From Kiritimatiellia bacterium (GTDB lineage Bacteria; Verrucomicrobiota; Kiritimatiellia; RFP12; UBA1067): DNA of 64,000 bases. The notes beneath the pieces are model-generated. The model was given only the letters and a program-made list of their open reading frames with translations, made no database searches and had not been told where the DNA came from. Location: positions 129,404-193,403 of the forward strand of contig JAZOQY010000041.1 of assembly GCA_045656285.1 (NCBI GenBank), read 5' to 3'. The number at the start of each line of letters is the position of its first letter. Position 1 is the stretch's first letter. Below, in pieces: positions 9,974 to 35,175 of this stretch. The position numbers were made by a program, and so were the translations under genes.

Positions 9974-9985
9974 ACGTCTGCAGAC

Positions 9986-18043: not shown

Positions 18044-19267
18044 TTACATTTCTTCCGGTTCTGAATTGCCGTGAGGGATCGGCTTCCAGCGTCTTGTGGG
18101 AAACACGATCGTCCAAAGAATCGACGCGGAAAGAATAAAGGAAAACGCGGGGAACGTCAGTACGGCCCACCATTTCGGACGCCGCTTCTTGCTGGAGAGG
18201 AAGACCGCCCCCCACGCAGTCACCAGGCCTACGATAGCAACAAAGACGAACATCGCCAAACACAGGATCGCCGCTTGAACGGCAGGACCGCCCAAACACA
18301 CCTTGAGGACAAACGCCAACACGGCAAAAAGCAGAACGAACGCAACGGACATGCCGGTCAAAATGGCGAAATAGCTATCGAAAAGACGCATCGACGGACG
18401 ACGGAACATGGCCTTGAGCCACGGGAAGAGATAAAGTCCCGCGACATGCCAGCCGCCGGTGGTCCAGCGGCAAAGCTGATGCCACATGTGCTTCACCTTC
18501 ACAGGCTGCTCGTCGGAATACTCCGCTTCTGATATGTAGCCGATGCGACGGCCGGAAATGTTGCACTGGACCGAAAATTCCACATCTTCGACCAAAGTGT
18601 GGGTACGCCAGCCCTTGCCTTCCAGGATGGTCGTCAGAAATGCGAATCCCGTACCGGTCAGCTTACCCGAAAGCCCCAGCTTCGTACGCACGCGGTTCGA
18701 AAGTTCGTTCATCAGATCCCAGTAAACGGTATACCAGCCGGAGATCACATTTGTCGTGGCGTTCGAGGTCATGCGACGGCCCGTAGCTATCACATCCCCG
18801 TCGTTGAGCGCGTTATTCATCTCGTCGAACCACTGAGCGGAAACGACGTTGTCGGCGTCGAACACCGCTATCGCATCGTAATAGTCAGAACGCTCCAGAA
18901 CCTTGTTGATCGCCCACGCCAGAACATCTCCCTTGCCCGAACTGGGCTCGGTCTTCTCCCAGACCGTGGCTCCGGCGGCACGGGCGGCTTCGGCGGTCTT
19001 GTCGGTGCAGTTGTCGGCCACGACAATCACCTCTCGCTTGTCCTTGGGATAGGAGGACATCAAAACGCTTTTGACAGGAAGGCGAATGACGTTTTCCTCG
19101 TTTCGGGCGCAGATCAATACGGCGAAACGGAGCTTGCGGTCGGCGACAGGATGTTTCCTGCGCGGAATGAGAAGCCCTACGGCGACCACAAGAGTGGACC
19201 ACAGGAACACAAGTCCCAGACCGATTGCCACATAGTCAAAACCGTTGAACGAATTACTCTCAATCAT
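18044..19267 (-). CDS. Membrane-bound family-2 glycosyltransferase
   Basis: GT2 motifs …AVLICARNEENVI…VVADNCTD…VFDADNV…QxxRW-like QLCRWTTG, plus C-terminal TM helices. Start re-picked at ATG 19265–19267 to avoid a 68-bp overlap with the next gene. Confidence 0.7.
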   Translation of the reverse strand: MIESNSFNGFDYVAIGLGLVFLWSTLVVAVGLLIPRRKHPVADRKLRFAVLICARNEENVIRLPVKSVLMSSYPKDKREVIVVADNCTDKTAEAARAAGATVWEKTEPSSGKGDVLAWAINKVLERSDYYDAIAVFDADNVVSAQWFDEMNNALNDGDVIATGRRMTSNATTNVISGWYTVYWDLMNELSNRVRTKLGLSGKLTGTGFAFLTTILEGKGWRTHTLVEDVEFSVQCNISGRRIGYISEAEYSDEQPVKVKHMWHQLCRWTTGGWHVAGLYLFPWLKAMFRRPSMRLFDSYFAILTGMSVAFVLLFAVLAFVLKVCLGGPAVQAAILCLAMFVFVAIVGLVTAWGAVFLSSKKRRPKWWAVLTFPAFSFILSASILWTIVFPTRRWKPIPHGNSEPEEM

Positions 19268-20078
19268 CACGCCATCTCCTATGAACCCATAAATATTGTT
19301 CTGGATACTCACGAATCGCCGATTCAAGACGATCGTTCAAAATCTGTGTTGCAGCATCCCTGTCCGCATCTTTGGCAAACGCAAGCGGACTTCCGCCGAC
19401 AAGCCTGTAACGATACGGAGCTATGCGCACAAACGATCCAACAACAATTTTGCATCCGCTCCGCATGGCAAGACGCGTAGCACTCGTAAAAGTACGGGCG
19501 GGACGCCCGAAAAACCGCAATTTCGCGCCGCTCGACGTATGCTGATCGATAAGAATCGTCATCGCAGCCGACGTCTCTGTCCATTGGCGCAAAACGGCAG
19601 ACGTGAAGCCTTTGTTCTTGTCGACCACCGTAACAGGGCCTCTGAAATGATGCTTCTTCATCCATTTCGCGACAAATCTGCTGTTCATCACGCGCGCCAC
19701 AGCGATCATAGGACGGGCAAACGAAAGAACGTTCGTCGCCGCCTCCCATACTCCGTGGTGGGCGCTTACAAGAATAATCGGCTCGTCGGGAGAGTCGAGA
19801 AGAAGCTTTGCAGTTTCAGGATCGATCGAATCGACCTCCAGGTGTTCGCGCCAGTTCGAGGCGTTGACGACATTCGGAACGCAAAGCGCCTCGCAAACAT
19901 GCCCCGCAAGGTGACACCAGGACTTTTTGGCGATTCGCTTGGCCTCCTTCTCGTCTGAAGTAATCCCGCACTTCATGATATTCATAACAGCCAAACGCCT
20001 CCTTTTAGGGAAAAACGGCCACAGGAGCGCGGCAAAACCGGCCCCGAAGCCATAAGCGTGTTTCTGTATGAATGTCAT
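19260..20078 (-). CDS. LpxL/HtrB-family lipid A (lysophospholipid) acyltransferase
   Basis: …ILVSAHHGVWEAA… (the HX4E catalytic motif) and LpxL-like length. Start re-picked at MTFIQKH (20078) so that it abuts the hisD stop. Confidence 0.7.
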   Translation of the reverse strand: MTFIQKHAYGFGAGFAALLWPFFPKRRRLAVMNIMKCGITSDEKEAKRIAKKSWCHLAGHVCEALCVPNVVNASNWREHLEVDSIDPETAKLLLDSPDEPIILVSAHHGVWEAATNVLSFARPMIAVARVMNSRFVAKWMKKHHFRGPVTVVDKNKGFTSAVLRQWTETSAAMTILIDQHTSSGAKLRFFGRPARTFTSATRLAMRSGCKIVVGSFVRIAPYRYRLVGGSPLAFAKDADRDAATQILNDRLESAIREYPEQYLWVHRRWRDD

Positions 20079-20082
20079 GTTT

Positions 20083-21357
20083 CTATTCAAAACGGATAGT
20101 CGCGGCTCTGCCGTGAGCATCCAGACCTTCGACCGCGGCGAACGCCTCGATCGTCGACTTGGTCTCCTTCAGATCCTCCCTGGTGAATGCGACGAAACTG
20201 TGACGGCGGCGGAAATCATCCGGCGTAAGACCGTTGAACATGTCCGCAGCTCCTCCGGTCGGAAGAACATGGCTCGGCCCCGCCACAAAGTCGCCTGCCG
20301 ATTCGGGAGTCCACGGCCCAGCGAAGACCGCTCCCGCCGAACGGACACCCTTCATGACCTTAAGCGCGTCTGAAGTCATGATCTCAAAATGCTCGGGGGC
20401 AAAACGGTTGACGACCTCAAGGCCCTCTTTCACGTTCCTGGCGACGACGATCAAAATCCCGCCGCGGTCTATGACGCGCTTGACTATGTCCTTGCGCGAA
20501 AGCGTCTCGGTCTGCGCGAGAACCTGGGCTTTGATCTCGCGGGCGAACTTTTCGCTCGTGCAGACGCAAAGCGACTTCTCCCACCCGCTGCCGTGCTCGG
20601 CCTGGCTCAAAAGATCGGCGGCTATCCATGACGCGCTGACGGACCCATCGGTCAAAACTGCGATTTCGCTGGGACCGGCCACCTGATCGATGGCGACATA
20701 GCCGTAAACCTGACGTTTGGCCGCCGTGACGTACGCGTTGCCGGGACCCGCAATCTTCTGGACTTTCCTGCAGGATTTCGTGCCGAAAGCCATCATGCCG
20801 ATGGCCTGAATTCCTCCGACCCGGTAAATCTCGGTCGCACCAGCCAATTTAAGGGCATACAAAAGCACGGGATTGACTTCACCTGTCTTGCCGGCGGGAG
20901 TGCAGGCGACGATTTCCTTTACGCCAGCGGCCTTGGCGAGAGTCACGGTCATTATCGAAGTGGACGCCAAAGGCGCGGTGCCGCCGGGAACATAAACGCC
21001 GACACGGTCCATCGGAGAGAAGAACTCGCCCGTGGTTCCGCCGCGCGGAGTCTTCATCGACCATGGCTCGCGCAAAGACGCCTTTGAAAATTTCATGACG
21101 CGACGATGGGCATCCTTGACGGCCTTGAGAACAGACGGATCGATCGTCTTCTCCAAAGAGTCGATGTCGACATCAATCCTCAAAGACTTGCCTTTATAGC
21201 CCTCGAACTTGCGGACATATTTCAAAACGGCCTTCTCTGAATTCTTGCGGATATCGGCAAGAACCCCGAATGCGGCCTTTTCGGCCTCTTCGGGGAACGC
21301 TGGACGAGCATTGAACTTCTCTACGCTCTTATCTCCGGCCTTGACGATTTTTATCAT
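20083..21357 (-). CDS. hisD: Histidinol dehydrogenase
   Basis: Full-length HisD (…VGVYVPGGTAPLASTSIM…SQAEHG…). 424 aa. Confidence 0.9.
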   Translation of the reverse strand: MIKIVKAGDKSVEKFNARPAFPEEAEKAAFGVLADIRKNSEKAVLKYVRKFEGYKGKSLRIDVDIDSLEKTIDPSVLKAVKDAHRRVMKFSKASLREPWSMKTPRGGTTGEFFSPMDRVGVYVPGGTAPLASTSIMTVTLAKAAGVKEIVACTPAGKTGEVNPVLLYALKLAGATEIYRVGGIQAIGMMAFGTKSCRKVQKIAGPGNAYVTAAKRQVYGYVAIDQVAGPSEIAVLTDGSVSASWIAADLLSQAEHGSGWEKSLCVCTSEKFAREIKAQVLAQTETLSRKDIVKRVIDRGGILIVVARNVKEGLEVVNRFAPEHFEIMTSDALKVMKGVRSAGAVFAGPWTPESAGDFVAGPSHVLPTGGAADMFNGLTPDDFRRRHSFVAFTREDLKETKSTIEAFAAVEGLDAHGRAATIRFE

Positions 21358-21837: not shown

Positions 21838-21856
21838 ATCGGTTTTCCTTGGGTTT

Positions 21857-23146
21857 TCAGACCTTTTTGAAGACGAGAATGCCGTTGTGGCCGCCGAATC
21901 CGAGCGAACTCGAAAGCGCGACACGAATCTCGCGCTCGACGCCCTTGTTGGGCGTGTAGTTCAAATCGAGCGGAGTTTCGCCGTTCTCGACATTGACTTC
22001 GAGATCGGGATTCTCGTAATTGATCGTGGGAGGAACGAATCCCTCGTGGATGGCAAGAGCGGTGATCGCGGCCTCGAGCGCGCCCGCCGCGCCGAGAAGG
22101 TGCCCGTGCATGGACTTGGTGGAAGAGATGTTGATCTTCTTCGCGCCCTCCTCGCCGAAGATGCGCTTGAAAGCCTTGGTCTCCATCTGATCGTTGAGAT
22201 GGGTCGATGTTCCGTGCGCGTTGATGTAATCAACCGTAGAGCGGTCTTCTATGCCGGCATCCTTGAGCGCGATCTCGATGGCCTTTACGGCGCCGTCGCC
22301 AGACGGATCGGGAGCCGTGATGTGGTACGCGTCGGACGTCGAACCGTAACCGGCGAGCTCGCAGTAGACGCGGGCGCCGCGAGCCTTGGCGTGCTCCTCG
22401 GATTCGAGAATGAGAACGGCGGCACCCTCGCCCATGACGAAACCGTCGCGGTCGGCATTGAACGGACGGCACGCCTTCTCGGGCGTATCGTTGAACTTTG
22501 TCGAAAGAGCGCGCATTCTCATGAATCCGCCGACGGCGAATTCAAGAACAGCCGCCTCCGTGCCGCCGGCGATGACGACATCGGCGCGGCCTGCGCGGAT
22601 CATGTCGAGCGCGAAGCCAAGCGCATCCGTCGAGCTGGCGCAGGCTGTGGTGACAACCTGAGCGGGGCCCTTGGCGCCAAGCGCGATAGAGACGTTGCCG
22701 GCAGCCTCGTTGGCGATAAGTTCGGGAATCGCCAAAGGAGAGAGGCGTTCAGGGCCACGGTCGAAAAGCGTCTTGTAGCTCTCGCCGGTGACTTCAAGAC
22801 CTCCGATGCCGTTGCCGATGAGAGTGCCGACGCGATCCATGTCGGGCTTGGACTCTTCGGTATAGCCGGCATCGCGCCAGGCCTCGACGGCCGCAGCGAC
22901 GGCGTACTGGGAGAACAGCGCCATGTGACGGGCTTCGCGCTTGTCGATAAGCCCGCCGTCGATTGCATAAGACTGGAAATCCTTCACTTCGCCGGCGACC
23001 TGGCTGGTGCAGCGCGATGCATCGAACTTTGTGATTTTGCCGACAGCCGGAGTGCCCGCCTTGAGCGAAGCCCAGGCCGCGTCTTTGCCGTTGCCGTTGG
23101 CGCACAGCATTCCGATACCAGTAATCATTACTTTCTTCATCTTCAA
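21857..23146 (-). CDS. fabF: β-ketoacyl-ACP synthase II
   Basis: MKMKKVMITGIGMLCANG… Active-site context …VTTACASST…, …HGTST…, …GHLLGAAG…. Confidence 0.9.
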   Translation of the reverse strand: MKMKKVMITGIGMLCANGNGKDAAWASLKAGTPAVGKITKFDASRCTSQVAGEVKDFQSYAIDGGLIDKREARHMALFSQYAVAAAVEAWRDAGYTEESKPDMDRVGTLIGNGIGGLEVTGESYKTLFDRGPERLSPLAIPELIANEAAGNVSIALGAKGPAQVVTTACASSTDALGFALDMIRAGRADVVIAGGTEAAVLEFAVGGFMRMRALSTKFNDTPEKACRPFNADRDGFVMGEGAAVLILESEEHAKARGARVYCELAGYGSTSDAYHITAPDPSGDGAVKAIEIALKDAGIEDRSTVDYINAHGTSTHLNDQMETKAFKRIFGEEGAKKINISSTKSMHGHLLGAAGALEAAITALAIHEGFVPPTINYENPDLEVNVENGETPLDLNYTPNKGVEREIRVALSSSLGFGGHNGILVFKKV

Positions 23147-23179
23147 TTCCTCTCTTTTAAATTCTTGGATTTCTTCCGG

Positions 23180-24202
23180 TTAAAGATTCGGCCAGGTGCA
23201 GAACGTGCCGGCGTACGTAAGGCCCGCGCCGAATCCGACCATGACGATGTTCATTCCGTCCTTGAGTTCCCCGGCTCTGACGGCCTGGTCAAGCGAGATC
23301 GGAATGGATGCTGCGCTCGTGTTGGCCGTTGTTTCGAGATTAAGCCAGAATTTCTCAAGAGGAAGCTTCATGCGGCGCGCGACGGCCTCGATGATGCGAC
23401 CGTTGGCCTGGTGGGCGAACACGCGGTCGATCTCCTCGGGAGTCGTTCCGAGAAGATTGCAGAGATCGCTCGAGACCTTGGCGAGGGTCTTGACCGCAAA
23501 GACAAAGACATCGTGGCCCTTGAGGGTGAGCTCGGGCAGGAACGGCTGAGGCTTCTCCGGAACCTGAGTTACAGGCGAAATCGGCAAAGCGTCCTTGCAG
23601 CCGCCCGTGCGCATGATGAAATGCGAACCCAGGCCGTCGGCCCCGAGAATCGTGTGGGCCTTTGTCTTGAGCGACGCGACACCCGGCGGCTCGTCGTTGC
23701 CGAGAACGACAGCTCCGGCACCGTCGCCGAAGAGGATGCAGCTCGCACGGTCCGTCCAGTCGAGAATGCGCGTAAGCGATTCAGCGCCGATGACGAGAGC
23801 CTTCTTGTCGGGATAGAAGTTCACGAACCCGCGAGCCTGCTCGAGAGCGTAAACGAAGCCGGCGCATGCCGCCTGGAGATCGAAGGCGCCGGCGTTTGTG
23901 CATCCGAGAATTCCCTGGACTATGCAAGCCGTCGAAGGGAAAGGATTATAATCCGGCGTTGATGTCGCTACGACAATCAAGCCTATTTCATCGGCCTTGA
24001 CCCCCGCCGCATCCATCGCCGCCTGAGCGGCTTTTGCGGCCATGGTCGAAGTCGACTCCCCTTCTCCGGCAACATGGCGCGAATGGATGCCCGTATGGGA
24101 ATAAATCCACTCGTCAGACGTTTCCAAAGACTGAGCAATATCGTCGTTTGTGACGATTTTCTCAGGAAGATAACTGCCGGTTCCTAATATACGAATACCC
24201 AT
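23180..24202 (-). CDS. fabH: β-ketoacyl-ACP synthase III
   Basis: MGIRILGTGSYLP…ACAGFVYAL… (Cys-His-Asn triad context). AGGAG sits 6 nt upstream of ATG 24200–24202; the track's GTG start at 24208 is 2 codons longer. Confidence 0.9.
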   Translation of the reverse strand: MGIRILGTGSYLPEKIVTNDDIAQSLETSDEWIYSHTGIHSRHVAGEGESTSTMAAKAAQAAMDAAGVKADEIGLIVVATSTPDYNPFPSTACIVQGILGCTNAGAFDLQAACAGFVYALEQARGFVNFYPDKKALVIGAESLTRILDWTDRASCILFGDGAGAVVLGNDEPPGVASLKTKAHTILGADGLGSHFIMRTGGCKDALPISPVTQVPEKPQPFLPELTLKGHDVFVFAVKTLAKVSSDLCNLLGTTPEEIDRVFAHQANGRIIEAVARRMKLPLEKFWLNLETTANTSAASIPISLDQAVRAGELKDGMNIVMVGFGAGLTYAGTFCTWPNL

Positions 24203-24230
24203 ATTCACTCCTGTTTACGGATTTTGCACC

Positions 24231-24243
24231 ATTATACCAAAAA
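24231..24243 (-). promoter_or_regulatory. Candidate extended −10 element TTTTTGGTATAAT upstream of fabH
   Basis: Reverse complement of attataccaaaaa. About 28 nt upstream of the fabH ATG and upstream of the AGGAG Shine-Dalgarno (SD) sequence. Confidence 0.45.
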
Positions 24244-24270
24244 TAGTTGAAGTTGAACAATGGACTTTAA

Positions 24271-26013
24271 TTATCTGGAGAAATGCGATCGGTGCACCGA
24301 AGCGTCAACCAGAATGTTTTTCTGGCGGTTTTTCTCGCCCAAAGAACGCGCGACATGTACGCGGCGGCCGCTGACGGGATCGATCCCCGTGTAATACATG
24401 CATGTCGCGGCGGTAAGGGGGGTCGGCGTGAAAATCTGGACCTGCTCGGGGTTGAGCTTGAGCTCCCTCGTCGCGAAACGCTTGAGCTCGCGCATGTCCG
24501 CTTCCGTGCATCCCGGATGCGCCGCGATGAAATAATACGTCAAGAACTGCTTTTTGCCGAACCGCCTGTTGGCGGCCTCGAATTTTCTTTTGAACTTCAA
24601 AAGGCTCTCGACGCCGGGCTTTCCCATGAACTCCAGGACGCGGGGAACAACATGCTCGGGCGCAAGCTTGAGCTGGCCGGACACATGATGCCTGGCGATC
24701 GCGTCGATGTACCGGTCGCCGCATGCGCTGTCGGCGGCGACAAGGTCGGGACGGATGCCGCTGGCGACAAAGACACGCCTGACGCCCGGTATCGAGCGCA
24801 ATTTCTGAAGCAGATCAAGCTGAGGGCGATGATCGACCTTCAACGAAGGACATACGGACGGGAAAAGGCAGGCTTTGTTTCTGCACGCGCCTGCCGACGC
24901 CTTTCTCGCGCAATCAAACCCGTACATGTTCGCCGTCGGACCGCCGACATCGCTGACAATCCCCTTAAAGCGCGGATGATCAAGAAAACGCTTCACTTCG
25001 TTCACGATGCTTTCGGGCGAACGGCTCACGATCCGACGCCCCTGATGGACGGCTATGGCGCAGAATCTGCATCCGCCGTAGCAGCCGCGATGGGTGGTGA
25101 CGCTGAAACGGACGGTGTCCAGAGCCCTTATCTCCCCCTGGCTGCGGATCGAGGCGGGCGCGTCCAGCGTCCATTTGATGTCATGGACGGCGTCCAGCTC
25201 ATCACGCTCCAGCGGCGGAGAAGGAGTGTTGTGAACCAGGTAGCGATTGTCGACTTTCTGGATCAGCACCCTGGCCGTCACGGGATCCTGATTGTCGGAG
25301 AAAAGCCTGAACGCATCGGCAAACGCCTTCCTGCCTTCATCCGTGGCGGCGCTGACTTCCGCATAGGACGGCAGCACCGTCGCATTCTCCGGCAAAACGA
25401 AATTCTTTTCGCTTGCCATGTAGCAAAGCCCCCTGATCGACCGCCAGTCGCGTCCGTTCTTGAGCGCATCGGCGAATTCAAGGACCGTCCTCTCGCCCAT
25501 TCCGTATGAAAGCGCGTCTGCCTTTGCGTCGCATACGATCGGTCGGCGCACTTTATCGCTCCAGAAATCATAGTGGCTTATGCGCCTCAAACTTGCCTCC
25601 ACTCCGCCCAGAAGGATGGGTTTTGCCGGCTTCCACGCAGAACGGATCGCGTTGGAATAGACTATCGCCGCACGGTCGGGGCGGCGGTTGTTCTCGCCGC
25701 CAGGCGTGAAATCGTCATGATGGCGCCTTTTCCCCGACGCCGTGTAATTGGCGACCATCGAATCGACGCATCCGGGGCTCACGCCCCAGAAAAGCGCCGG
25801 CTCTCCCAGTTTCTTGAACGCCAGAGGATCGTTCATGTCGGGCTGGCTCAAGACAGCAACGCGATATCCCGCCTTGGCAAGCGTCCGGCCGATCACCGCG
25901 ACGCCGCTGTAGGGCGAATCGATATAGGCGTCTCCGCTCACCAGAATGACATCGGCCTGATCCCATCCGAGCTTAAGCATCTCTTCTCTGGTAACGGGTA
26001 TTGGATCATTCAT
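24271..26013 (-). CDS. ygiQ: YgiQ-family (UPF0313) radical SAM protein
   Basis: N-terminal …DVILVSGDAYIDSPYSGVAVIGR…VAVLSQPD… plus a radical-SAM core …RGCYGGCRFCAIAVHQGR… Start re-picked at MNDPIP (ATG 26011–26013). Confidence 0.8.
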   Translation of the reverse strand: MNDPIPVTREEMLKLGWDQADVILVSGDAYIDSPYSGVAVIGRTLAKAGYRVAVLSQPDMNDPLAFKKLGEPALFWGVSPGCVDSMVANYTASGKRRHHDDFTPGGENNRRPDRAAIVYSNAIRSAWKPAKPILLGGVEASLRRISHYDFWSDKVRRPIVCDAKADALSYGMGERTVLEFADALKNGRDWRSIRGLCYMASEKNFVLPENATVLPSYAEVSAATDEGRKAFADAFRLFSDNQDPVTARVLIQKVDNRYLVHNTPSPPLERDELDAVHDIKWTLDAPASIRSQGEIRALDTVRFSVTTHRGCYGGCRFCAIAVHQGRRIVSRSPESIVNEVKRFLDHPRFKGIVSDVGGPTANMYGFDCARKASAGACRNKACLFPSVCPSLKVDHRPQLDLLQKLRSIPGVRRVFVASGIRPDLVAADSACGDRYIDAIARHHVSGQLKLAPEHVVPRVLEFMGKPGVESLLKFKRKFEAANRRFGKKQFLTYYFIAAHPGCTEADMRELKRFATRELKLNPEQVQIFTPTPLTAATCMYYTGIDPVSGRRVHVARSLGEKNRQKNILVDASVHRSHFSR

Positions 26014-26060
26014 GGCATCGCCCCAACACATTCTCGCTTGGTTCAAGCATCCTGCAAGCA

Positions 26061-26999
26061 TCAGAATCCCGGAAGATTCATCTGTCCCGACACGCAGACT
26101 TTGCGTCCTTTGGAAAGCGTCCGGTCCGAGGTATCGTACACTACGAATTTTATCCCGTCGAAACGGCGGGAGAGTTCAGACCTTATGTAATTCGATACGC
26201 TTTTGACATTACCCTTGTCGTCATCGGAGAACCCGATTGCGACCGATCTGCCGAGACCGCCCGTACGTTGGAGCATGTGGAAGACATGCTCCACGAAATC
26301 GCGTATCGCGAACTCCTTGGCGAGTTCCGGCTTTGCGGCCGTCGTGGCCCTGGCGAGCTTCTCCTTGTAGACGGGATCGTTGGCCATACGCTCCTTGAAC
26401 CCGTCGTACGTGACCGCCGCGTAACGGCACATCCCCAGATAGTAATCGAGCTCCTCTTCGTCGGTGCCGAACGTTTCGACCTTGTCGAGAAACTTTCTGT
26501 ATCCGCGAAGATTCGACATCATCGTTTCGCGCTCGAGCGGGGTTAGAGCGTTCTCTATGAAGACGCGAACCGCCTTCTCTATTGTCGCGGGAGCGTGCCC
26601 GCGCGCTGTCACGATGGCGAATATCCGACCTTCGATCAGCGTCTTGCGGAACGTATTGTAGCTCGGAGAAGGCTTCTCGCCGTTTGAAACCTTGGCCAGC
26701 GCCGCAAGCGTATCCTCGATGAAGCGGTTCGGCTCGTCGTCATTTTCGGGATCGGCGAAATTCCTGAACGCCTCGTCCCAGCCGCCGTTCGCCGGCGGAC
26801 GGTAGTGATCGGTGTCGGTTCTCACGAGCGCGAAGGTCGAGGTCGAAACCTCGACGCTCTTCCATACGCCATCCTCGCCTTTATGCTCCATCCTTATCTT
26901 GGTGGGCATGTGAAGGATGTTGTCGTCCCAATCGAAGATGTAATACTTGAAGTCGCGGTTGGCGACCTCTTCGTTCAGGTACGGAACGGGGCGCGTCAC
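26061..26999 (-). CDS. Hypothetical protein, divergent HAD-superfamily hydrolase-like
   Basis: Motif I-like YIFDWDDNIL (position 5 is Asn, not Thr/Val). Motif II-like AIVTAR. Motif IV-like GFSDDDKGN. No closer family recognised. Confidence 0.4.
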   Translation of the reverse strand: MTRPVPYLNEEVANRDFKYYIFDWDDNILHMPTKIRMEHKGEDGVWKSVEVSTSTFALVRTDTDHYRPPANGGWDEAFRNFADPENDDEPNRFIEDTLAALAKVSNGEKPSPSYNTFRKTLIEGRIFAIVTARGHAPATIEKAVRVFIENALTPLERETMMSNLRGYRKFLDKVETFGTDEEELDYYLGMCRYAAVTYDGFKERMANDPVYKEKLARATTAAKPELAKEFAIRDFVEHVFHMLQRTGGLGRSVAIGFSDDDKGNVKSVSNYIRSELSRRFDGIKFVVYDTSDRTLSKGRKVCVSGQMNLPGF

Positions 27000-28249
27000 A
27001 GCGCATCCCCTTCGAAATCGAACCCGGCCGCCCGCTCCAGGCGGACGCGGCAGAAATCGCCGACCGCGAGACGGCGGGCCTTCGGAGAATCGAGAAGATA
27101 CACGACGCCGTCGACATCGGGAGCCTGGGAACGCATGCGGGCGACGCCGGGAGCCACAACAAGCGCGTCGTATGCCTCACCCAGCATCTTCCTGGACTTC
27201 ACCTTCCAGAGCTTCTTCGCTTCGGCCATGACAATCCTTTCGCGCTCTTCGGCAATCTTGCGCGACGGGCGGCCCGACATCTTCGCGCCCTTGGTGCCCT
27301 TCTCGGGACTGTACGCGAACGCACCGAGCCGATCGAACTGCATGCGCCTCAAATCCGCAAGAAGCTCGTTGAAACGGGCTTCAGTCTCGCCGGGAAAGCC
27401 GGTCATCACGGTTGTGCGAAGCGTAATTCCGGGCACTACGTCGCGCAGGACCTCCGCCGCCACACGAGACGCCTCGATCGCGCCCTTGCGGTTCATCTTG
27501 GCGAGGATTTCGGGAACGGTATGCTGGAGCGGAACGTCGACATACTTCACCGCATGCTTCGCATTGTTGAGCCAGTCGACGAATTCCTCCGTGATCTCGC
27601 TGGGATAGCTGTAGAGGACACGAATCCAAAACTCCCCCTTTAGCGCGTCAAGCTTCCAAAGCAGATCGCTCAACCGGGTCTTTTCCTTGAGATCGCAACC
27701 GTAAAGCATGGGGTCTTGAGCCACGATATTCAGTTCGCGGCAGCCGCTCTTTATGAGCGCCTTTGCCTCGCGAATGATATCCGCCATCGGGCGCGAACGG
27801 AATCTGCCGCGAATGCCCGGTATTGCGCAGTAGGCGCACTTGTGGTTGCAGCCCTCGGCGATCTTGAGATACGCAAACGCCTTTCCGGTAAACCTGAGCT
27901 CCGGCATTTTAGGCTCGATCCATTCGGACGGAACTCCCTGCCAGACATCGACGCCGGGGAATTTCGACTTCGCTTTCGGATATCGCTGAGGGTAGCATCC
28001 CGTGACGACGACCTTGCCGAAATTGCCGCTGTTCTTGAGCGCGACGGCGCGGGCGATCTCGCTCTCGGCCTCTTCACGGGCCGAGGCGATGAACGAACAC
28101 GTATTGACGATCACAACATCTGCGCGGTCGGGATCGGGCGAAAGTACGCAGCCCTCCTTGAGAAGGTTGCCCGCCATAACCTGAAGATCGACTGCGTTTT
28201 TGGCGCACCCGAGAGATACCAGCGACAACGATGTTTTTGCTTTAGCCAT
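26996..28249 (-). CDS. rimO: Ribosomal protein S12 methylthiotransferase (MiaB-family radical SAM)
   Basis: N-terminal MTTase domain …LVSLGCAKNAVD…VIVNTCSFI…, a radical-SAM CNHKCAYC motif and a TRAM-like C-terminus. ATG at 28247–28249. Confidence 0.85.
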   Translation of the reverse strand: MAKAKTSLSLVSLGCAKNAVDLQVMAGNLLKEGCVLSPDPDRADVVIVNTCSFIASAREEAESEIARAVALKNSGNFGKVVVTGCYPQRYPKAKSKFPGVDVWQGVPSEWIEPKMPELRFTGKAFAYLKIAEGCNHKCAYCAIPGIRGRFRSRPMADIIREAKALIKSGCRELNIVAQDPMLYGCDLKEKTRLSDLLWKLDALKGEFWIRVLYSYPSEITEEFVDWLNNAKHAVKYVDVPLQHTVPEILAKMNRKGAIEASRVAAEVLRDVVPGITLRTTVMTGFPGETEARFNELLADLRRMQFDRLGAFAYSPEKGTKGAKMSGRPSRKIAEERERIVMAEAKKLWKVKSRKMLGEAYDALVVAPGVARMRSQAPDVDGVVYLLDSPKARRLAVGDFCRVRLERAAGFDFEGDAL

Positions 28250-28258
28250 GACTGTTCA

Positions 28259-28267
28259 ATTATATCA
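28259..28267 (-). promoter_or_regulatory. Extended −10 TGATATAAT, 9 nt upstream of the rimO ATG (candidate leaderless promoter). Its TGA is the stop codon of the upstream ketosynthase (KS) gene
   Basis: Minus-strand sequence reads TGATATAAT-TGAACAGTC-ATG. Confidence 0.4.
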
Positions 28268-29407
28268 CAATCTTCCGAAAATCACACTCGCATTGCTGCC
28301 GCCGAACGCAAAGGAATTGGAAAGCGCGACGTTCACCTTTACGGCGTTGCCCTTCTCGGCGATCCTGAATGGGGCAATGGAGGAATCGACCTCGTCTGTG
28401 ACATGGGCAGGCACCCCGGCGCCTTTCTGGATCGCCAGGCAGCACAGAGCCGCCTCAAGGGCCCCCGCCGCCCCCAACGCGTGCCCGACGAGAGGCTTTG
28501 TCGAGCTGCACAGGACATCCGCTCCGAAAACACGCGACACCGCCGCGCATTCCATGGAGTCGTTGTATGTCGTTCCTGTTCCGTGGAGATTCACGTAATC
28601 GACCTCGCCCGGCTCGAGATTCGCATCGGCAAGAGCCGCGCGCATGGCCGCCTCGGCTCCGCGGCCTTCGGGATCGGGTGCCGTCAAATGGTAGGCGTCC
28701 GAGGTTTCGCCGACTCCCAGAAGCGCCACGCCGCGCTCTCCTTCATCGGCTTTCCTGAGTATGAAGAGCGCGACGCCCTCGCCGAGGTTTATCCCGTCGC
28801 GACCGGGGGAAAGCGGCCTTGTCAAAGTAGACGAAACAGCCTCAAGGGCGCTGAACCCGTTTACGACAATACGCGTCATCGCATCGGCTCCGCCGACCAG
28901 GACTGCGTCGCAGATCCCGTTTTCGATCAGGCGCCGCGCGGAGGCGAAAACTTTAGCGCTGGACGAGCATGCCGTCGACACGGCCCAGCACGGCCCGCCC
29001 AGAGCGCACTTTTCTTTTATGCGCATGGCGGGATAGCTCATGTCTATCCTGTCCGAAGGCCTGAATTCCTCAAGCGTGGAATTGCTGGTCCCGAGAACAA
29101 CGCCGATGCGTTCGGGACTGCAGCGCCTTTTCAAATCTTCTACGGCGGGCATGAGATTCGAAAGCGCGACATCCACAAGCGCGCCGATACGGGTGGGCGA
29201 GGCCGCCAGTTCCTCATCCGTAAGCGGCACCGACCCGAAAAACGTCTTTTCGCCCGATGTTATTATGCCGTCAAGCTCTTTCATGCCGGACGTATCGCCG
29301 GCTGTCATGCGCGCGTGCGTTGATTCGTTATCGCGCCCGAGAGCGCTTACGATCGTAAAATCGGAGATCAGATAACGGTTTTTATTCTCTTTATCGGCAC
29401 TTTCCAT
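28265..29407 (-). CDS. β-ketoacyl-ACP synthase (FabB/FabF-like ketosynthase (KS)) belonging to a specialised lipid cassette
   Basis: KS fold with Cys-His-His (…VSTACSSS…, …YVNLHGTGT…, …GHALGAAG…). Start re-picked at MESADKENK (ATG 29405–29407); the upstream part of the track ORF is Arg/Cys-rich and unlike KS N-termini. Confidence 0.8.
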   Translation of the reverse strand: MESADKENKNRYLISDFTIVSALGRDNESTHARMTAGDTSGMKELDGIITSGEKTFFGSVPLTDEELAASPTRIGALVDVALSNLMPAVEDLKRRCSPERIGVVLGTSNSTLEEFRPSDRIDMSYPAMRIKEKCALGGPCWAVSTACSSSAKVFASARRLIENGICDAVLVGGADAMTRIVVNGFSALEAVSSTLTRPLSPGRDGINLGEGVALFILRKADEGERGVALLGVGETSDAYHLTAPDPEGRGAEAAMRAALADANLEPGEVDYVNLHGTGTTYNDSMECAAVSRVFGADVLCSSTKPLVGHALGAAGALEAALCCLAIQKGAGVPAHVTDEVDSSIAPFRIAEKGNAVKVNVALSNSFAFGGSNASVIFGRL

Positions 29408-29417: not shown

Positions 29418-32354
29418 TCATTGGACGTTCCACGTAAAATCCTGAAGCGGCCAGGCATCGCGCAGCTTAAGCAGTTCGATCGCATACGCCCTGGACATCT
29501 GCCTGGCTTCGGGCGGCATGCGCTTGACGAAAACACGGTATTTGCGACCGCCCGTCGAAATGCACGAAACAAAATAGACAGGATGCTCCAGCGCGGCGGC
29601 GAACCTGAAGACGCCTTCGGCCAATTCGACCTTCCGGCCGTCGACCTCCTCGATGCGCTTGCGCCCGAAGCTTCTGTCTCCGGCCATCAATATCGCATCG
29701 CCATCATCAAGCCTTTCCCCGGCGAAGAACACAGTGCCGGGATTGAACTCCGAAATCGGATGGATAACAACCTTGTTGCGCCGCTGATGCTTAAGGTAGA
29801 AGGCGTTGAAGACACCCGTGCGAGCAAACTCCATCCATGCGTGGAAAGTCACTTCGCATTCGCCGAGCGCGGCAAGGACCTCGATCGTTCCGACATGGGA
29901 GGAAAGGACAAAAACACCCTTCTTTGCGCTTACGTCGTTTATGAAATCTGCGGCATCCCGAGAATCGTCAAGCTCCACAACGGGCTTTGAGCGTCCGTCT
30001 GCCATAACGACCATCTTGTCCGCAAGCGAGCGCGTAAAGTTCATGACCTTGCCGAGCTTCGGAGAAGCCCTTCTCACGCCCGGCGAACATATCCACATGA
30101 AAAAGCCCGTGCCGGAAGCCGCAAAATGGAAAAACCCCAAGCCGAAAACCCTGTATATCGCCCAGATCAGCGCAAGCCCGAACGGAGTAGACGCGTATTC
30201 GGAAGTATCTTTGCGGGGAACGAAGAGAAGCGAAATCATGTACGCGACGGGCAGGCCGACGGCAAGCGAAAGCCCGAAAGCCCTGACGACAGGGAATGAA
30301 ACGAAAACGAGCGAACCGAAACCTACAAAGCTTGTCAAAAAGGCAAATGTCACGCTCCTGACGGAGTTCTCTTCGCCGGAACGCGCGAAAACCGCGTAAT
30401 CGACACCCATGCCGGCAAGCAGGAAAAGCGCCAAAAGATGGAAAAGATTGACGCCGACCCCCGTCAACGACAGGAATCCGAGCACTGAAACCACCGCCGC
30501 GAGCGAAGGGAATGCGACCGCAAACGCTTTGCGCCCGAAAAGCGCAACAAGAACAATCACCATCGCAACAAGCGAAAGCAACAGCCACAAGCCGATTTCT
30601 TCGGTCCACTCATCCAAAATCCCTTCAAGCGTTTTGCGCGGCTGACAGAACGAGACGCCTTCAACCGCCCCTTCGGACGTCAACACCTCCGGTCGCTGCA
30701 CCGACGAAAGAATCAAAGCTCCGTCCCGCACAAAGAGACTCTTCAACGAATCGGGAACATCGCTCCAAGTCCAGGCTCGAGGTTCGTCCGGGAGCGTCAA
30801 TTCCTCCAATCCGAGTCGGCTTTTGACATATTCGCCCTGCTCTTTGTAGAGAAGCACGACAGCCTCATGCTGCGACTGCCGCTTTTTGAGAGACGGCATG
30901 AAACGCGAAAGGCATGGCACGTCCGGAGGGAGTTCCAAGGACTCTTCCCTTTCGAGAAGCGTCTCAAGATCATCCGGACCGTCCGTCACGAGAAAGCCGC
31001 GGTTTTCGTCAGCCGAGCCGTTTATTTCCGCCAGCGTGCGCTCGGCGTCCGCAAGTTCTTCAGGCGGAGCGTAAAGAGATGTAATGGCGGTCTTGAACCC
31101 AAAGGAACAAAAGCCGGCAAACGAAGCGGCAAACGCGACAACTCCAAAAAAACGCAAGATCTTAACAGGCGGAGAAATGCGCTTGACGGAAGACAAATCG
31201 CCGTATCCGTCAGAGGGAAAGAGGAAAAGCACACAAAACAGAGCCGCCGCAAGCCCGACGCCGATGAATACGCCGCTTTGGCGAAGCACGGGGATGGACG
31301 AAAACAAAAGAGGCAGAAGAGTAATCTCGGTAGTGACAAAAGAAACGACAAGACTTCTTGCCGTCGCGCGAACATCGCCGGAACGGCGCAACAGCCAATG
31401 ATATCCGTAATCGACGACAAGCCCCAGAAGAGTCGTTGCGAAAAGCACTGTCACCACATGGATTTCCGAAAAGACAGACACCAGCGCCAAAGAGCCTGTC
31501 AACGCGGAGAAAAGCAGCAGATAGGCCAAAAGAAAAATCGATTTCAAGGAACGGAACACAAGCAAGGACAGCAAAAGGACAAACATCAGGGAAACGAAAC
31601 CCAGAACTGTCGTCTCGAATTTGCATTTGGCGGCAGAATACGCGCTGTGCATCGGAATTCCGCAGGCGGATGCCGAGACGCTCTCGCTCCTGACATTCTG
31701 AAGAACGTTTTCCAGACGCCCGCGGAAAGCGATAAGCGCATCCATATCGCCAACCAGAGAATCGCCAAGCTCCATCGCGAGCAGAATGTGATGTTCGCCA
31801 TTTTTTTCGGCCGTCAGAAAACCGGTGGAAAAATCGGGCTTGAACGACGACTCGGAGTTCGCAAACGCCTTTGCAAACCCGTCCGTCAGCAGAAAAGGAT
31901 CTTCGTCAACCGGAAACAGCGGCGGCACAATCGACTGGAAAGCGCTCTTGACGGCTCTGCGAGCGATCTTGGAACGTCCTTCAGCCGAGGCCAGCAGTTC
32001 AGCATCGCCCGACGAGACAAGCCCGGAATCATTTTTCCTGCAAAGGTCGGCTATTTCCTCGACCTCGCCTCCGTCTATCCGGAATCTCACGCTTTTGCAT
32101 TCATTGGCCGGAAGATTATCTGCAAGATATTCCGCCGCTTTCAACGCATCCTGTCGATTTCCGGAGGAAACCAGAACAGGAACGACATCATCAGACCCGT
32201 TGCGCACAGCCTCCGGAACGGAATCCGCGGCGGAGCCCACCAAATCATAAAGTGAACTTTTAAGCTCTACGCGTCCAAAAGCAAACACGCACGCCAGCGC
32301 ACACAGGAGCGCCGCGACCGGAGCAGCGGCTTTAGCTGTTCGTTTCAGCGTCAT
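29418..32354 (-). CDS. MMPL-family RND-like exporter fused at its C-terminus to an LpxL/HtrB-like acyltransferase domain
   Basis: aa 1–~715 carry two 6-TM bundles with MMPL signatures (…GLVVDYGYHWL…, …AGMGVDYAVF…) and two large periplasmic loops. aa ~720–978 carry a hydrophobic anchor plus …KKGVFVLSSHVGTIEVLAAL… (HX4E), collinear with the LpxL-like gene at 19260–20078. Confidence 0.75.
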   Translation of the reverse strand: MTLKRTAKAAAPVAALLCALACVFAFGRVELKSSLYDLVGSAADSVPEAVRNGSDDVVPVLVSSGNRQDALKAAEYLADNLPANECKSVRFRIDGGEVEEIADLCRKNDSGLVSSGDAELLASAEGRSKIARRAVKSAFQSIVPPLFPVDEDPFLLTDGFAKAFANSESSFKPDFSTGFLTAEKNGEHHILLAMELGDSLVGDMDALIAFRGRLENVLQNVRSESVSASACGIPMHSAYSAAKCKFETTVLGFVSLMFVLLLSLLVFRSLKSIFLLAYLLLFSALTGSLALVSVFSEIHVVTVLFATTLLGLVVDYGYHWLLRRSGDVRATARSLVVSFVTTEITLLPLLFSSIPVLRQSGVFIGVGLAAALFCVLFLFPSDGYGDLSSVKRISPPVKILRFFGVVAFAASFAGFCSFGFKTAITSLYAPPEELADAERTLAEINGSADENRGFLVTDGPDDLETLLEREESLELPPDVPCLSRFMPSLKKRQSQHEAVVLLYKEQGEYVKSRLGLEELTLPDEPRAWTWSDVPDSLKSLFVRDGALILSSVQRPEVLTSEGAVEGVSFCQPRKTLEGILDEWTEEIGLWLLLSLVAMVIVLVALFGRKAFAVAFPSLAAVVSVLGFLSLTGVGVNLFHLLALFLLAGMGVDYAVFARSGEENSVRSVTFAFLTSFVGFGSLVFVSFPVVRAFGLSLAVGLPVAYMISLLFVPRKDTSEYASTPFGLALIWAIYRVFGLGFFHFAASGTGFFMWICSPGVRRASPKLGKVMNFTRSLADKMVVMADGRSKPVVELDDSRDAADFINDVSAKKGVFVLSSHVGTIEVLAALGECEVTFHAWMEFARTGVFNAFYLKHQRRNKVVIHPISEFNPGTVFFAGERLDDGDAILMAGDRSFGRKRIEEVDGRKVELAEGVFRFAAALEHPVYFVSCISTGGRKYRVFVKRMPPEARQMSRAYAIELLKLRDAWPLQDFTWNVQ

Positions 32355-32947
32355 TTATCTTTCCAGAGCAAATGCGTCGAGCGGGAAATTTCCTTGAACT
32401 CGATCTTCGTGATTCCGCCGCCTTTGGTGCGCATGACGATACGGTCAACCGTACTGTCGCCGACAATCTCGACTTCCTCCATGATTCTGCGAGCCCTCCA
32501 GTTCGAGGGCTTGAAAACGGCCTTCCATCCGCCATTCTCCCCGGGCGAGAACTCCATGTCGACCATTGCCTTGAACGCGCCAGAATCACCGCCGAGAAAG
32601 GCATCGCACGCTTCTCGTATGCGGGCATAATGAGGAAGTTCCGAAAGCGATTTCTCGCGACGCCCGTCCTCGTCGGCAAAAACCATCTTATCCTTCGTCA
32701 TGGAAATCCTTTCGGCGAACGGAAAGCGCACATCCCATACAATGCCCTTTTGGGAGGCGCACGAAACGAGCCCCGTCGAAACAAGAGTCCGATCGGAACC
32801 CGCGAGCTTCCGTTCCATCTTCCACGAAGCGTCAGCATCCAAAGCACGACGCAGCGCAGATTCGCACCTGGAGCGGAGAGACGGCTGCTCAAGCGCCATC
32901 GACGTGCAGGAAAACAGCAGCGCAAACCCCAAACAAAGGTATTTCAT
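32351..32947 (-). CDS. LolA-like periplasmic lipoprotein-carrier-fold protein (putative, ApeL-like)
   Basis: Signal peptide MKYLCLGFALLFSCTSMA. About 200-aa mature protein of LolA/LppX-like size and β-rich composition, sitting between the AMP-ligase and MMPL genes as in aryl-polyene (APE)-type cassettes. Start re-picked at ATG 32945–32947, forming an ATGA overlap. Confidence 0.45.
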   Translation of the reverse strand: MKYLCLGFALLFSCTSMALEQPSLRSRCESALRRALDADASWKMERKLAGSDRTLVSTGLVSCASQKGIVWDVRFPFAERISMTKDKMVFADEDGRREKSLSELPHYARIREACDAFLGGDSGAFKAMVDMEFSPGENGGWKAVFKPSNWRARRIMEEVEIVGDSTVDRIVMRTKGGGITKIEFKEISRSTHLLWKDK

Positions 32948-34260
32948 CGACTTTTCCTTTCCCAAATTCCCGAAGCGCAAGGCCCCCGGAGACCAACCAG
33001 CGAAAACGACCATGAGTCATCGCTCTTTTTGTCTATCTGCAAAGACACTTCTGTCCCCGGGAAAATGACCTTCTGGAATTTCAGCTGGCGCAGAATGCAT
33101 GCGTCAGGAAACGAAGAAAACGCCTGTCGCGCAAAATGCCTTATGAAATAAAGCTGCGCCACGCCGGCGAGAACCGGGAACTTCGGGAAATGCCCGTCAA
33201 AACATTTCATGTCCGGAGGAAACACAAACTTGGCCGACAGGCGATTCGCGCCGAGAGACCACCCGGTCACCGCCGGTTCGCAGCACCACATGTCCAGCAT
33301 TGTCCGAACTGAAGCTACGGTTGTCTTTCCCTGCTCGTTCACCGGCAGCGCGCGGACAAATCTCATGCGGCGCGGAAACGCGGCCTGTTCGACAAGCGGC
33401 GCAATATCGCGTCTCAAACGGGCAGCCAAGCCGCCGACAGTGCCTTTAGCCAGCGCTTCGAGGCCTTCCGGCGAAAGCACGATCAGCGCACCCGTCCTCG
33501 CGACGGCGCCGGAGCAGACTTCGACTCGCACGCGATCTACGAGAGGATGGGACTTGAAGGCCTTTTCAACAGCGGAAAGCGAAACGTACTTCTCGAGTAT
33601 TTTGACGCGACGGTCCAAGCGCGCTCCGAGGACGAAAGTTCGGTCAGAAGTGAATTTTATCGAGTCGGTCATGACGAAAGGACGCGACATGGCGTGGGGC
33701 GAGTCGACCTCAAGGCCGCCCTCGGAAGAAAGACGCGCGTTGACGACAGGACAGAGCGTCCATTCCTCGCCGTTTATCCTTCTGCGCCAGGCCACGGAGC
33801 CCGCCTCGGTCGAGCCGTAAATTTCAAACGGAGAAGTTCCGAGCGTTTCATGGATCGCCTTCGACGTTTCTTCCGCGAGCAGGCTGCCGGAAGTCACGAT
33901 CGAGACGAACATCCCCTTCAGCGCCGCGAAATCCGGATGCCCGAGCGCTTTTTCGAGGAACGACGGCGTCGTCACAAAAAGAATCTTTCCGTATTTCGCG
34001 CACAGGGCGGAAAGTTCCTCGACAGACGTCACGATCGCCGGATCGACGGTCGAGCCGGCGATCGCGGGCGCACGTACGCGCCACAACGCTCCGTACATGT
34101 GCTCGGGACGCACGGTCGAAACCACAACGGGAGCCCGGCACCAGATGTCCGGAAAGGAATTCACAAGCTGAGTCGCATCTGCCATAAGCGACTCTTCGGT
34201 TCTCACGATGCGTTTTGCATCCCCCGTAGAACCGGACGAATGGAAAATCACCTCAGACAT
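32944..34260 (-). CDS. Adenylate-forming (AMP-binding) enzyme lacking the usual N-terminal region, fused to a C-terminal FabA/FabZ-like hotdog dehydratase domain
   Basis: Begins directly at the P-loop-like IFHSSGSTGDAKRIV. Also carries YGSTEAG, …GKILEKYVSLS…, and a C-terminal subdomain …ALPVNEQGKTTV…. aa ~330–438 read FDGHFPKFPVLAGVAQL, to be compared with fabZ GHFPDFPVVPGVVLVEAMAQ in this window. Confidence 0.7.
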   Translation of the reverse strand: MSEVIFHSSGSTGDAKRIVRTEESLMADATQLVNSFPDIWCRAPVVVSTVRPEHMYGALWRVRAPAIAGSTVDPAIVTSVEELSALCAKYGKILFVTTPSFLEKALGHPDFAALKGMFVSIVTSGSLLAEETSKAIHETLGTSPFEIYGSTEAGSVAWRRRINGEEWTLCPVVNARLSSEGGLEVDSPHAMSRPFVMTDSIKFTSDRTFVLGARLDRRVKILEKYVSLSAVEKAFKSHPLVDRVRVEVCSGAVARTGALIVLSPEGLEALAKGTVGGLAARLRRDIAPLVEQAAFPRRMRFVRALPVNEQGKTTVASVRTMLDMWCCEPAVTGWSLGANRLSAKFVFPPDMKCFDGHFPKFPVLAGVAQLYFIRHFARQAFSSFPDACILRQLKFQKVIFPGTEVSLQIDKKSDDSWSFSLVGLRGPCASGIWERKSR

Positions 34261-34639
34261 TCAACACTCTCCTGCGGTAGATATATTCACCGAGAAACAG
34301 GCCGCCCATCAGCAGATACGACAGGAAACCGTTGTAAAAAGCCCATACGCCGGGAGAAAGAAAAACGCTCGCCAGGCTCGCCATGAAATTAAATGCAAGA
34401 AACACGGTCCATACAACCGTCAGCTTCCTGCAGTAACGAACGCCTTTTTCGTCCAGATCACCCCGCATTCTCCTGGCGAAAGCCTCGCAAACGGGAGTCC
34501 GGAAAAGCGAAACGAAAAAAACGAAAAAGGCTATCAGGTTCATGATGACGGGATAAAGCCTGAAATATATTCTGCCTTTGAAGAAATAAACTCCCCAAAC
34601 GGCAAGAACAGGCAATATCGCCGTCAGAACTCGCTTCAT
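34253..34639 (-). CDS. Small four-TM membrane protein of unknown function (ApeG-like position)
   Basis: 128 aa, hydrophobic. Translationally coupled: ATGA with the ACP stop, 8-bp overlap with the AMP-ligase gene. Confidence 0.5.
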   Translation of the reverse strand: MKRVLTAILPVLAVWGVYFFKGRIYFRLYPVIMNLIAFFVFFVSLFRTPVCEAFARRMRGDLDEKGVRYCRKLTVVWTVFLAFNFMASLASVFLSPGVWAFYNGFLSYLLMGGLFLGEYIYRRRVLNV

Positions 34640-34893
34640 TTACCCTGCTCGTTCATCAAACGGAGGACAACGTCGGCGACGTCGCCTATCGTGCGGATCG
34701 ACTTGAAATCCTCCGCCTTAACCTTGAGCCCGGTCTGATTCTGCAAACGGACGACAAGATCCACAGCATCGATGCTGTCAAGATCAAGATCCTCGAAAAG
34801 ACGGGACTCCGGAGTAAGAGTCGCGGCATCGCATTCGAACTCTTCAACCAAAACGGACTTGATCGCCTCTACGGCCTCTTCCCTGGTCTTCAT
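34636..34893 (-). CDS. Acyl carrier protein
   Basis: 85 aa. The phosphopantetheine-attachment motif is LDLDSIDAVDLV. A GGAGGA SD lies inside the preceding ACP gene. Confidence 0.85.
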   Translation of the reverse strand: MKTREEAVEAIKSVLVEEFECDAATLTPESRLFEDLDLDSIDAVDLVVRLQNQTGLKVKAEDFKSIRTIGDVADVVLRLMNEQGK

Positions 34894-34896: not shown

Positions 34897-35175
34897 TCAG
34901 TCCTCCAGCTGGATATCCGCATTGGCCGCAATAAAGCTTGCAAGCGTGGACACGGACTTGAAATGCTCCTTGTTCTCTTCGGAATTCGCTTTGAACTTGA
35001 CCTGGTATTTCTTTCTGAGCGCCACTCCGATTTCAAGAGCGTCAATGCTGTCAAGCCCGACACCGTCGCCGAACAGAGGCTTGTCTGATTCAATGTCGGC
35101 AGCAGTAAGTCCATCCATCTCGACGGAGTTCAAAATAACCTGCCTTATTTCCTCTTCTAATTCAACTCTTTTCAT
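34897..35175 (-). CDS. Acyl carrier protein
   Basis: 92 aa. Attachment motif GVGLDSIDALEI. Confidence 0.85.
   Translation of the reverse strand: MKRVELEEEIRQVILNSVEMDGLTAADIESDKPLFGDGVGLDSIDALEIGVALRKKYQVKFKANSEENKEHFKSVSTLASFIAANADIQLED

Follow-up and report, generated by a model that had tools for sequence, protein, structure and literature searches.

The closest described systems are the aryl polyene (APE) lipid pathways of Escherichia coli and Xenorhabdus. In E. coli CFT073 the exporter ApeM (c1191), of the APPE family of RND/MMPL proteins, is encoded between the LolA-like ApeL and the ketosynthase ApeO, and ApeJ (c1194, with an orthologue in Xenorhabdus) joins a family 2 glycosyltransferase (GT2) to an acyltransferase. 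ApeJ was annotated as 'glycosyltransferase/acyltransferase' by Johnston et al., who also suggested that lipid A might be the anchor of APE. For the APE lipid of Xenorhabdus it was proposed that ApeJ adds N-acetylgalactosamine and then acylates with the ApeE-bound chromophore (bioRxiv 10.1101/2020.12.19.423268), and in the published model the APE product is exported by ApeM, ApeL and ApeN. Both the attachment to the anchor and the hand-over of aryl-polyene lipids by ApeM and ApeL are still proposals in the E. coli and Xenorhabdus papers. Here a stretch of 64,000 nucleotides from a gut Kiritimatiellia bacterium (the window) was analysed, in which a single gene on the minus strand (29418..32354) was predicted to encode an ApeM-like exporter and an ApeJ-type acyltransferase in one protein of 978 aa. 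The two domain identities and the genuineness of the fusion are held with high confidence. It is also judged fairly probable, taken as one statement, that the fusion is the exporter of an APE-type outer-membrane lipid pathway, which has gained the C-terminal acyltransferase and thereby couples acylation to export.

The gene started with ATG and contained 978 codons and no internal stop. The initial annotation had described a 12-helix MMPL module that runs without a stop into an acyltransferase-like domain with its own hydrophobic anchor, and had placed three motifs in it, all of which were found in the translation (Table 1). AlphaFold2 (a full-length model built from 33 orthologues, mean pLDDT 82.7) and hydropathy agreed with this layout. 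Transmembrane (TM) helix TM1 covered aa 3-26, the first periplasmic domain aa 30-230 and TM2-6 aa 233-378, followed by TM7 (aa 397-415), the second periplasmic domain (aa 420-570) and TM8-12 (aa 572-710). After TM12 the model contained a low-confidence linker (aa 711-723), a hydrophobic helix of 33 residues (aa 724-756) and an alpha/beta domain (aa 767-967). In the linker, pLDDT fell below 50 at residues 716-718, and E719 was the sole conserved column in the alignment of the 33 orthologues.

The junction (about 30190-30230, corresponding to the linker) was in frame in the window gene and in 32 of 32 full-length homologues from a protein search, which were 966-1006 aa long, shared 34-92% identity and aligned end to end. 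If a stop codon had been lost, or a frameshift introduced, by a sequencing or assembly error, two neighbouring genes could have been merged. The same single frame recurred in dozens of assemblies that had been produced independently, in different studies and from different hosts, so such an error is excluded, and its probability is put at almost nil. A genome scan with one genome per species gave 56 loci, nearly all in gut or rumen Kiritimatiellia metagenome-assembled genomes (MAGs), with a handful that carried older Verrucomicrobia or Lentisphaerae labels or were evidently mis-binned. In most of them the match crossed the junction into the acyltransferase domain; the exceptions were two loci with unfused genes (L048 and L055), one with an internal deletion (L045), and some that ended at a contig edge. 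The L045 gene (10001-11311) appears to lack most of the MMPL module and matched the query only at aa 111-163 and 626-976, which may reflect either a deletion or an assembly error.

An exhaustive search with a profile of the C-terminal domain found 1,509 relatives, and the MMPL module was also present in 48 of the 141 new representatives at 50% identity. Fused forms occurred in Opitutales as well (MBQ9759219.1 and Candidatus Spyradosoma), annotated as 'hypothetical protein', and the fusion was kept down to about 28-35% sequence identity and across two verrucomicrobial classes. The named proteobacterial homologues (Cupriavidus, Herbaspirillum, Pseudoxanthomonas, Desulfovibrio, Erwinia) were all unfused, with 750-800 aa. 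As judged from these sequences, the fusion is of ancient origin and is widely distributed among gut Kiritimatiellia and in Opitutales. The initial annotation, which had suggested a survey of homologues, had considered such a fusion unfamiliar among characterised APE or MmpL systems, and no description of this architecture was found in the searchable literature on APE transport, ApeJ and ApeM, MMPL fusions and Kiritimatiellia. The new element is the arrangement of the domains and its implication; each of the two domains, like the pathway, was already known.

The transporter half could be assigned as an ApeM orthologue of the RND/MMPL superfamily, because it was similar to E. coli ApeM over its full length (BLASTP, aa 16-719 against ApeM 22-771, 25% identity, E = 2e-34) and was encoded between apeL and apeO. 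It had the RND fold, with TM helices arranged as 1+5 and 1+5 and large periplasmic domains after TM1 and TM7 (AlphaFold2, hydropathy, Foldseek), and it matched the NCBIfam family HAE3 (TIGR00921, 3.9e-10). ApeM has 772 aa and stops after TM12, whereas the window protein continues for about 265 aa more with the acyltransferase. The nearest structures by Foldseek were the hopanoid exporter HpnN (5khn, E = 8e-17), MmpL4/5 and MmpL3, which are lipid exporters driven by the proton-motive force and taking their substrate from the inner membrane; in contrast to the window protein, no biosynthetic enzyme is covalently fused to any of them. In TM4 and TM10, the Asp-Tyr pairs presumably form a proton relay equivalent, by analogy, to the pairs of MmpL3.

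The C-terminal domain is predicted to be a catalytically competent acyltransferase of the LPLAT superfamily with the LpxL/LpxM/PatA fold, because four lines of evidence agree. First, a profile of 18 orthologous domains had Acinetobacter baumannii LpxM (5kn7) as its top sequence match in the PDB (E = 0.015), with the HX4E motif in register with HFGTWE of LpxM, and the entry of the E127A mutant scored lower; a phmmer search of the PDB with the single window domain gave no match. Second, Pfam PF03279 (Lip_A_acyltrans) was matched by 5 of the 18 orthologues (best 7.4e-6), and the orthologue in L029 reached 26.6 bits, above the cut-off of 22.3. Third, a model of the domain by itself (pLDDT 84, pTM 0.84) had only LpxM or PatA entries as its top 14 Foldseek matches in the PDB (E = 1e-9 to 6e-7), including LpxM 5kn7 at 1.3e-9 and PatA at 2e-8. 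Fourth, among 196 family members of all architectures H820, G822 and D893 were invariant, and the position of E825 was E in 182 and D in 8. The initial annotation had read SSHVGTIE as the HX4E catalytic motif, which agrees with its alignment to LpxM and its near-invariance. The domain might instead be a non-catalytic relic, which serves only for acyl carrier protein (ACP) docking or pump regulation. Docking on an MMPL protein is known from MmpL5-AcpM complexes in the PDB, where the ACP sits on the cytoplasmic face of MmpL5, and lends this explanation no direct support; with the catalytic residues kept (E or D in 190 of 196 at position 825), a relic is highly improbable.

By sequence, the domain is most closely related to the acyltransferase that makes up the C-terminal half of ApeJ, and not to the LpxL-like gene of the window. 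With hhalign, E. coli CFT073 ApeJ aa 259-545 aligned over 249 columns (probability 98.5%, E = 3.4e-15) that covered the complete domain of the window protein, with both the hydrophobic helix and the H-x-G-x-x-E motif inside the alignment, and BLASTP against ApeJ gave E = 2e-9 over window aa 733-937. The label of related proteins at JGI was 'predicted LPLAT superfamily acyltransferase' (COG4261-like). The partner of the domain differs from that in ApeJ, as no GT2 preceded it on the polypeptide and the MMPL exporter module took that place. ApeD (PlsC type) was also considered as a counterpart and rejected (hhalign E = 0.38). The initial annotation had seen a parallel with a free-standing LpxL-like gene at 19260-20078; that gene in fact covers 19260..20120 and matched PF03279 at 3e-27, and its similarity to the fused domain was remote (BLASTP E = 3.1, not significant; hhalign E = 0.0047 over 60 residues).

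LpxM/LpxL (5kn7) and PatA (5f34) share with the window domain the fold, the aligned HX4E dyad and an N-terminal membrane anchor, but identity to LpxM was 12-16% and the genomic context was different. If the domain were nevertheless a lipid A secondary acyltransferase (LpxL/LpxM), the protein would modify or export, or both, a molecule of the lipopolysaccharide (LPS) type. This would fit with Lip_A_acyltrans as the best Pfam family, with LpxM as the top structural match and with the anchor suggested by Johnston et al. It is quite unlikely, given the low identity to LpxM, the far closer relationship to ApeJ, the conserved ape gene order around the domain and the presence in the window of the separate gene with its clear PF03279 match.

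Concerning its orientation, the acyltransferase domain would face the cytoplasm, since the use of an acyl-ACP thioester is expected from homology with ApeJ and with the HX4D/E LPLAT enzymes, whose acyl-ACP or acyl-CoA thioester donors occur only in the cytoplasm. In RND proteins TM12 terminates on the cytoplasmic side, helix 724-756 is flanked by Lys and Arg on both sides (PRK before, RRASPKLGK after), and the counterpart helix of ApeJ comes after a GT2 domain that is necessarily cytoplasmic. Taken together, this favours a monotopic anchor that does not span the membrane; an N-out TM helix as in LpxL and LpxM is impossible here because the anchor comes after a cytoplasmic C-terminus. Were the helix a thirteenth TM segment, the acyltransferase would be periplasmic and would re-acylate or remodel the lipid after translocation, and its length of 33 residues and the N-terminal TM helix that LpxL and LpxM are said to use would be in keeping with this. 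The cytoplasmic confinement of the thioester donors, the basic residues at both ends and the cytoplasmic GT2 in front of the ApeJ helix make it very unlikely.

The origin of the fusion could be followed by querying all fetched loci with the E. coli Ape proteins and examining the open reading frames (ORFs) of these loci, which gave five architectures. In E. coli, GT2 and acyltransferase are joined in ApeJ and ApeM is separate. In L055, a low-GC rumen MAG, a GT2-only ApeJ of 245 aa held the ApeJ position, ApeM (722 aa) was unfused, and a free-standing acyltransferase of 301 aa lay just downstream. In eight loci (L021, L024, L029, L031, L034, L035, L038 and L046; Candidatus Spyradenecus is one example) a GT2-only ApeJ (250 aa) between ApeH/I and ApeK was followed by ApeK, ApeL and the ApeM-acyltransferase fusion (976 aa). 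The window and its nearer relatives had the fusion in a cluster without GT2 and ApeK. In L048 a free-standing acyltransferase of 271 aa was found next to ApeO, with no adjacent ApeM. Because related lineages have a GT2-only ApeJ together with the acyltransferase on ApeM, the acyltransferase behaves as a mobile module, which departed from ApeJ and joined ApeM.

The L055 locus (8320-13580), in a MAG labelled Alphaproteobacteria, looked like another fused homologue by tblastn and was rejected as such, since its ORFs showed the unfused ApeM, a phosphopantetheinyl transferase-like gene on the opposite strand (12102-12704) and the free-standing acyltransferase; it looks like the arrangement before fusion. 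The acyltransferase of L048 (3943-6493), 54% identical to the window domain, had a phosphoribosylanthranilate isomerase gene on one side and an ApeO-like ketosynthase on the other, and in L048 the fusion may have been split secondarily. In L029 (12844-14472) the ApeO ketosynthase and the ApeP dehydratase were joined in one ORF of 542 aa, which is the third ape gene fusion in the phylum beside ApeH-ApeI and ApeM-acyltransferase.

The coupling of acylation and export is a plausible inference because of the fusion itself and the published model of ApeJ. In the proposed mechanism, the ApeE-like ACP (34897-35175) would bring the finished acyl chain, its role as donor being taken from the ApeJ model. 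The acyltransferase, held at the inner membrane face by its non-spanning helix, would then pass the chain to a lipid acceptor beside the pump. The product could enter the MMPL module laterally and be lifted to the periplasmic domains by the proton-motive force, and would finally be handed over to the LolA-like ApeL, which would take it to the outer membrane. Both activities would be kept adjacent and at a ratio of 1:1 by the fusion. In favour of this model, the solved MmpL5-AcpM complexes demonstrate that the cytoplasmic face of an MMPL transporter can be a docking site for an ACP. In mycobacteria, synthesis and export are reportedly coupled through non-covalent contacts, such as that of MmpL7 with PpsE. 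The mechanism could go further, with the acceptor sitting in the membrane-facing groove of the transporter and the tethered acyl transfer from the ACP being the committed step of pump loading; together with the short cluster of the window lineage, which lacks the glycosyltransferase, the thioesterase and half of the polyketide synthase (PKS), this might yield a so far unknown, non-glycosylated outer-membrane lipid. Such vectorial acylation is considered rather unlikely.

Both activities could also be as described and the fusion neutral or mildly convenient and without mechanistic meaning, arising in a fusion-prone lineage with the lipid diffusing freely before export. The same lineages fuse ApeH with ApeI and ApeO with ApeP, the acyltransferases of L048 and L055 are unfused, and in a rough neighbour-joining tree of 196 acyltransferase domains, too crude for counting fusions and fissions, a free-standing group was nested inside one large, mostly fused clade. 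Neutrality fits less well with the retention of the fusion at such low identity and in two classes. The partners in the ApeH-ApeI and ApeO-ApeP pairs probably act together, and this cooperation would favour the fusing of proteins that interact. A neutral fusion is a real but doubtful possibility.

Several observations weigh against the coupled exporter and acyltransferase. The window sequence fell short of both Pfam families, with 17.8 bits for MMPL (PF03176, cut-off 20.5) in a match limited to aa 328-381, and 11.5 bits (E = 0.17) for PF03279. The initial annotation had proposed both families for checking, and had named a missing PF03279 match of the C-terminal 260 aa as grounds for giving up its LpxL/HtrB-type call. 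For the transporter, some orthologues passed PF03176 (27.1 bits in L054), and its identity as an MMPL exporter stands by fold, TM layout and similarity to ApeM. For the acyltransferase, superfamily and fold (LpxM, PatA) held and the family could not be taken from the window sequence itself; the family assignment survives because of the L029 orthologue, the profile that found LpxM and the predicted fold. The full-length model reached a pTM of only 0.62, which bears on the coupling. The anchor helix was as hydrophobic as genuine TM helices, and if it spanned the membrane the domain would be periplasmic. Unfused variants, L048 and a group of proteins of about 245-290 aa, belonged to the same clade, so the fusion is not obligatory.

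The last of these points is the incompleteness of the cluster. No homologue of ApeP, ApeQ, ApeC, ApeD, ApeK or the ApeJ-type GT2 was found in the 64-kb window, so that the core PKS partners apeC (chain length factor), apeP (dehydratase) and apeQ (ketoreductase) and the acyltransferase apeD were missing from it. The only match of the ketosynthase ApeR was a FabF-like gene (21857-23146) that seems to belong to housekeeping fatty-acid synthesis. In L001, L003, L004, L006, L007, L012, L020 and L056 the cluster had this short form too, and the full O-P-Q-R-C-D set was directly downstream in 15 other loci, such as L011 and L029. The missing genes may be elsewhere in the genome, as in L019.

Gene by gene comparison (BLASTP) with the ape cluster proteins of E. 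coli CFT073 gave the order E-F-G-H/I-L-M::AT-O in the window (AT, acyltransferase), which is the order of the E. coli ape genes and was conserved in about 35 Kiritimatiellia loci (Table 1). The ApeH/ApeI fusion lacked the first 138 or so residues of E. coli ApeH and was present in nearly all Kiritimatiellia loci, and for this reason it is probably functional despite the truncation. The true start of the ApeL-like ORF is probably M23, 22 codons in, which would give the signal peptide MKYLCLGFALLFSCTSMA; read from M23, this contains the lipobox-like LFSC. Neither the window nor any of the related fetched loci contained a homologue of ApeN (LolB-like, DUF3261), which comes after ApeM in E. coli. 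For the ApeO-like ketosynthase, homology began near aa 62-69 of a longer ORF, and the probable start is the ATG at 29407, 10 nt past the stop codon of the fusion gene.

Table 1. Predicted features of the fusion gene and of the surrounding ape-type cluster, in window coordinates
Feature	Position	Strand	Basis
ApeM-like MMPL exporter with ApeJ-type acyltransferase domain, whole fusion gene	29418..32354	minus	single ORF, 978 aa + stop
MMPL/RND transporter module, aa 1-710, 12 TM helices and two periplasmic domains	30225..32354	minus	AlphaFold2, hydropathy, Foldseek, NCBIfam
TM4 motif VDYGYHWL, aa 314-321	31392..31415	minus	D315, Y316 and H319 invariant in 33 orthologues
TM10 motif GVDYAVF, aa 650-656	30387..30407	minus	D652 invariant, Y653 at least 90% conserved in 33 orthologues
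Inter-domain linker, aa 711-723	30186..30224	minus	weak conservation, low pLDDT
Hydrophobic anchor helix, aa 724-756	30087..30185	minus	Y734 invariant, R735 almost so; aligns with ApeJ aa 259-295
Acyltransferase catalytic domain, aa 757-978, LpxM/PatA fold, ApeJ C-terminal type	29421..30086	minus	AlphaFold2, Foldseek, profile, hhalign
Catalytic motif SSHVGTIE, aa 818-825, HX4E dyad H820/E825	29880..29903	minus	aligned to LpxM HFGTWE
ApeE-like acyl carrier protein	34897..35175	minus	PP-binding; 55% identity to ApeE
ApeF-like acyl carrier protein	34636..34893	minus	PP-binding; 48% identity to ApeF
ApeG-like small membrane protein	34253..34639	minus	40% identity to ApeG aa 89-189
ApeH-like adenylating enzyme fused to ApeI-like dehydratase	32944..34260	minus	Pfam AMP-binding and ApeI-like; BLASTP ApeH aa 139-448, ApeI
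ApeL-like LolA-family periplasmic carrier	32351..33013	minus	Pfam LolA_3; BLASTP ApeL E = 5e-8, aligned from aa 23
ApeO-like ketosynthase	28265..29407	minus	Pfam ketosynthase domains; 41% identity to ApeO

In the minus-strand stretch 21370-29407 the ape-type cluster broke off with the ApeO-like ketosynthase, and past it a MiaB-like radical SAM gene (26996-28249), an ORF of 312 aa without a Pfam match (26061-26999), a YgiQ-type radical SAM gene (24271-26061), and FabH, FabF and FabA-like genes were identified, with HisD after them. The LpxL-family gene overlapped a GT2 gene (18044-19327) by 68 nt on the minus strand, with HisD directly upstream of the pair and a glycine-transporter-family gene, tyrosyl-tRNA synthetase and LptF/G further downstream. 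This GT2 was considered as a part of the system and rejected, as it had no BLASTP similarity to the N-terminal half of ApeJ and was unlinked to the cluster elsewhere. The pair (18044-20120) is probably LPS-related, and in other genomes it was not linked to the ape-type cluster.

The natural and widely conserved fusion of an ApeJ-type acyltransferase with ApeM provides Rosetta-stone evidence for attachment and export being neighbours in function, and the relatives with a GT2-only ApeJ indicate that the two activities of ApeJ are genetically separable. It is unusual for an RND transporter to have a biosynthetic enzyme covalently attached, and a system on a single polypeptide would be suited to studying how synthesis is coupled to the extraction of lipids from the inner membrane, the same question that is posed for mycobacterial MmpL proteins. 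All carriers are uncultured MAGs. For the abundant, uncultured Kiritimatiellia of the gut, whose proteins of this kind stand as 'hypothetical' in public records, the fusion points to a conserved envelope-lipid pathway.

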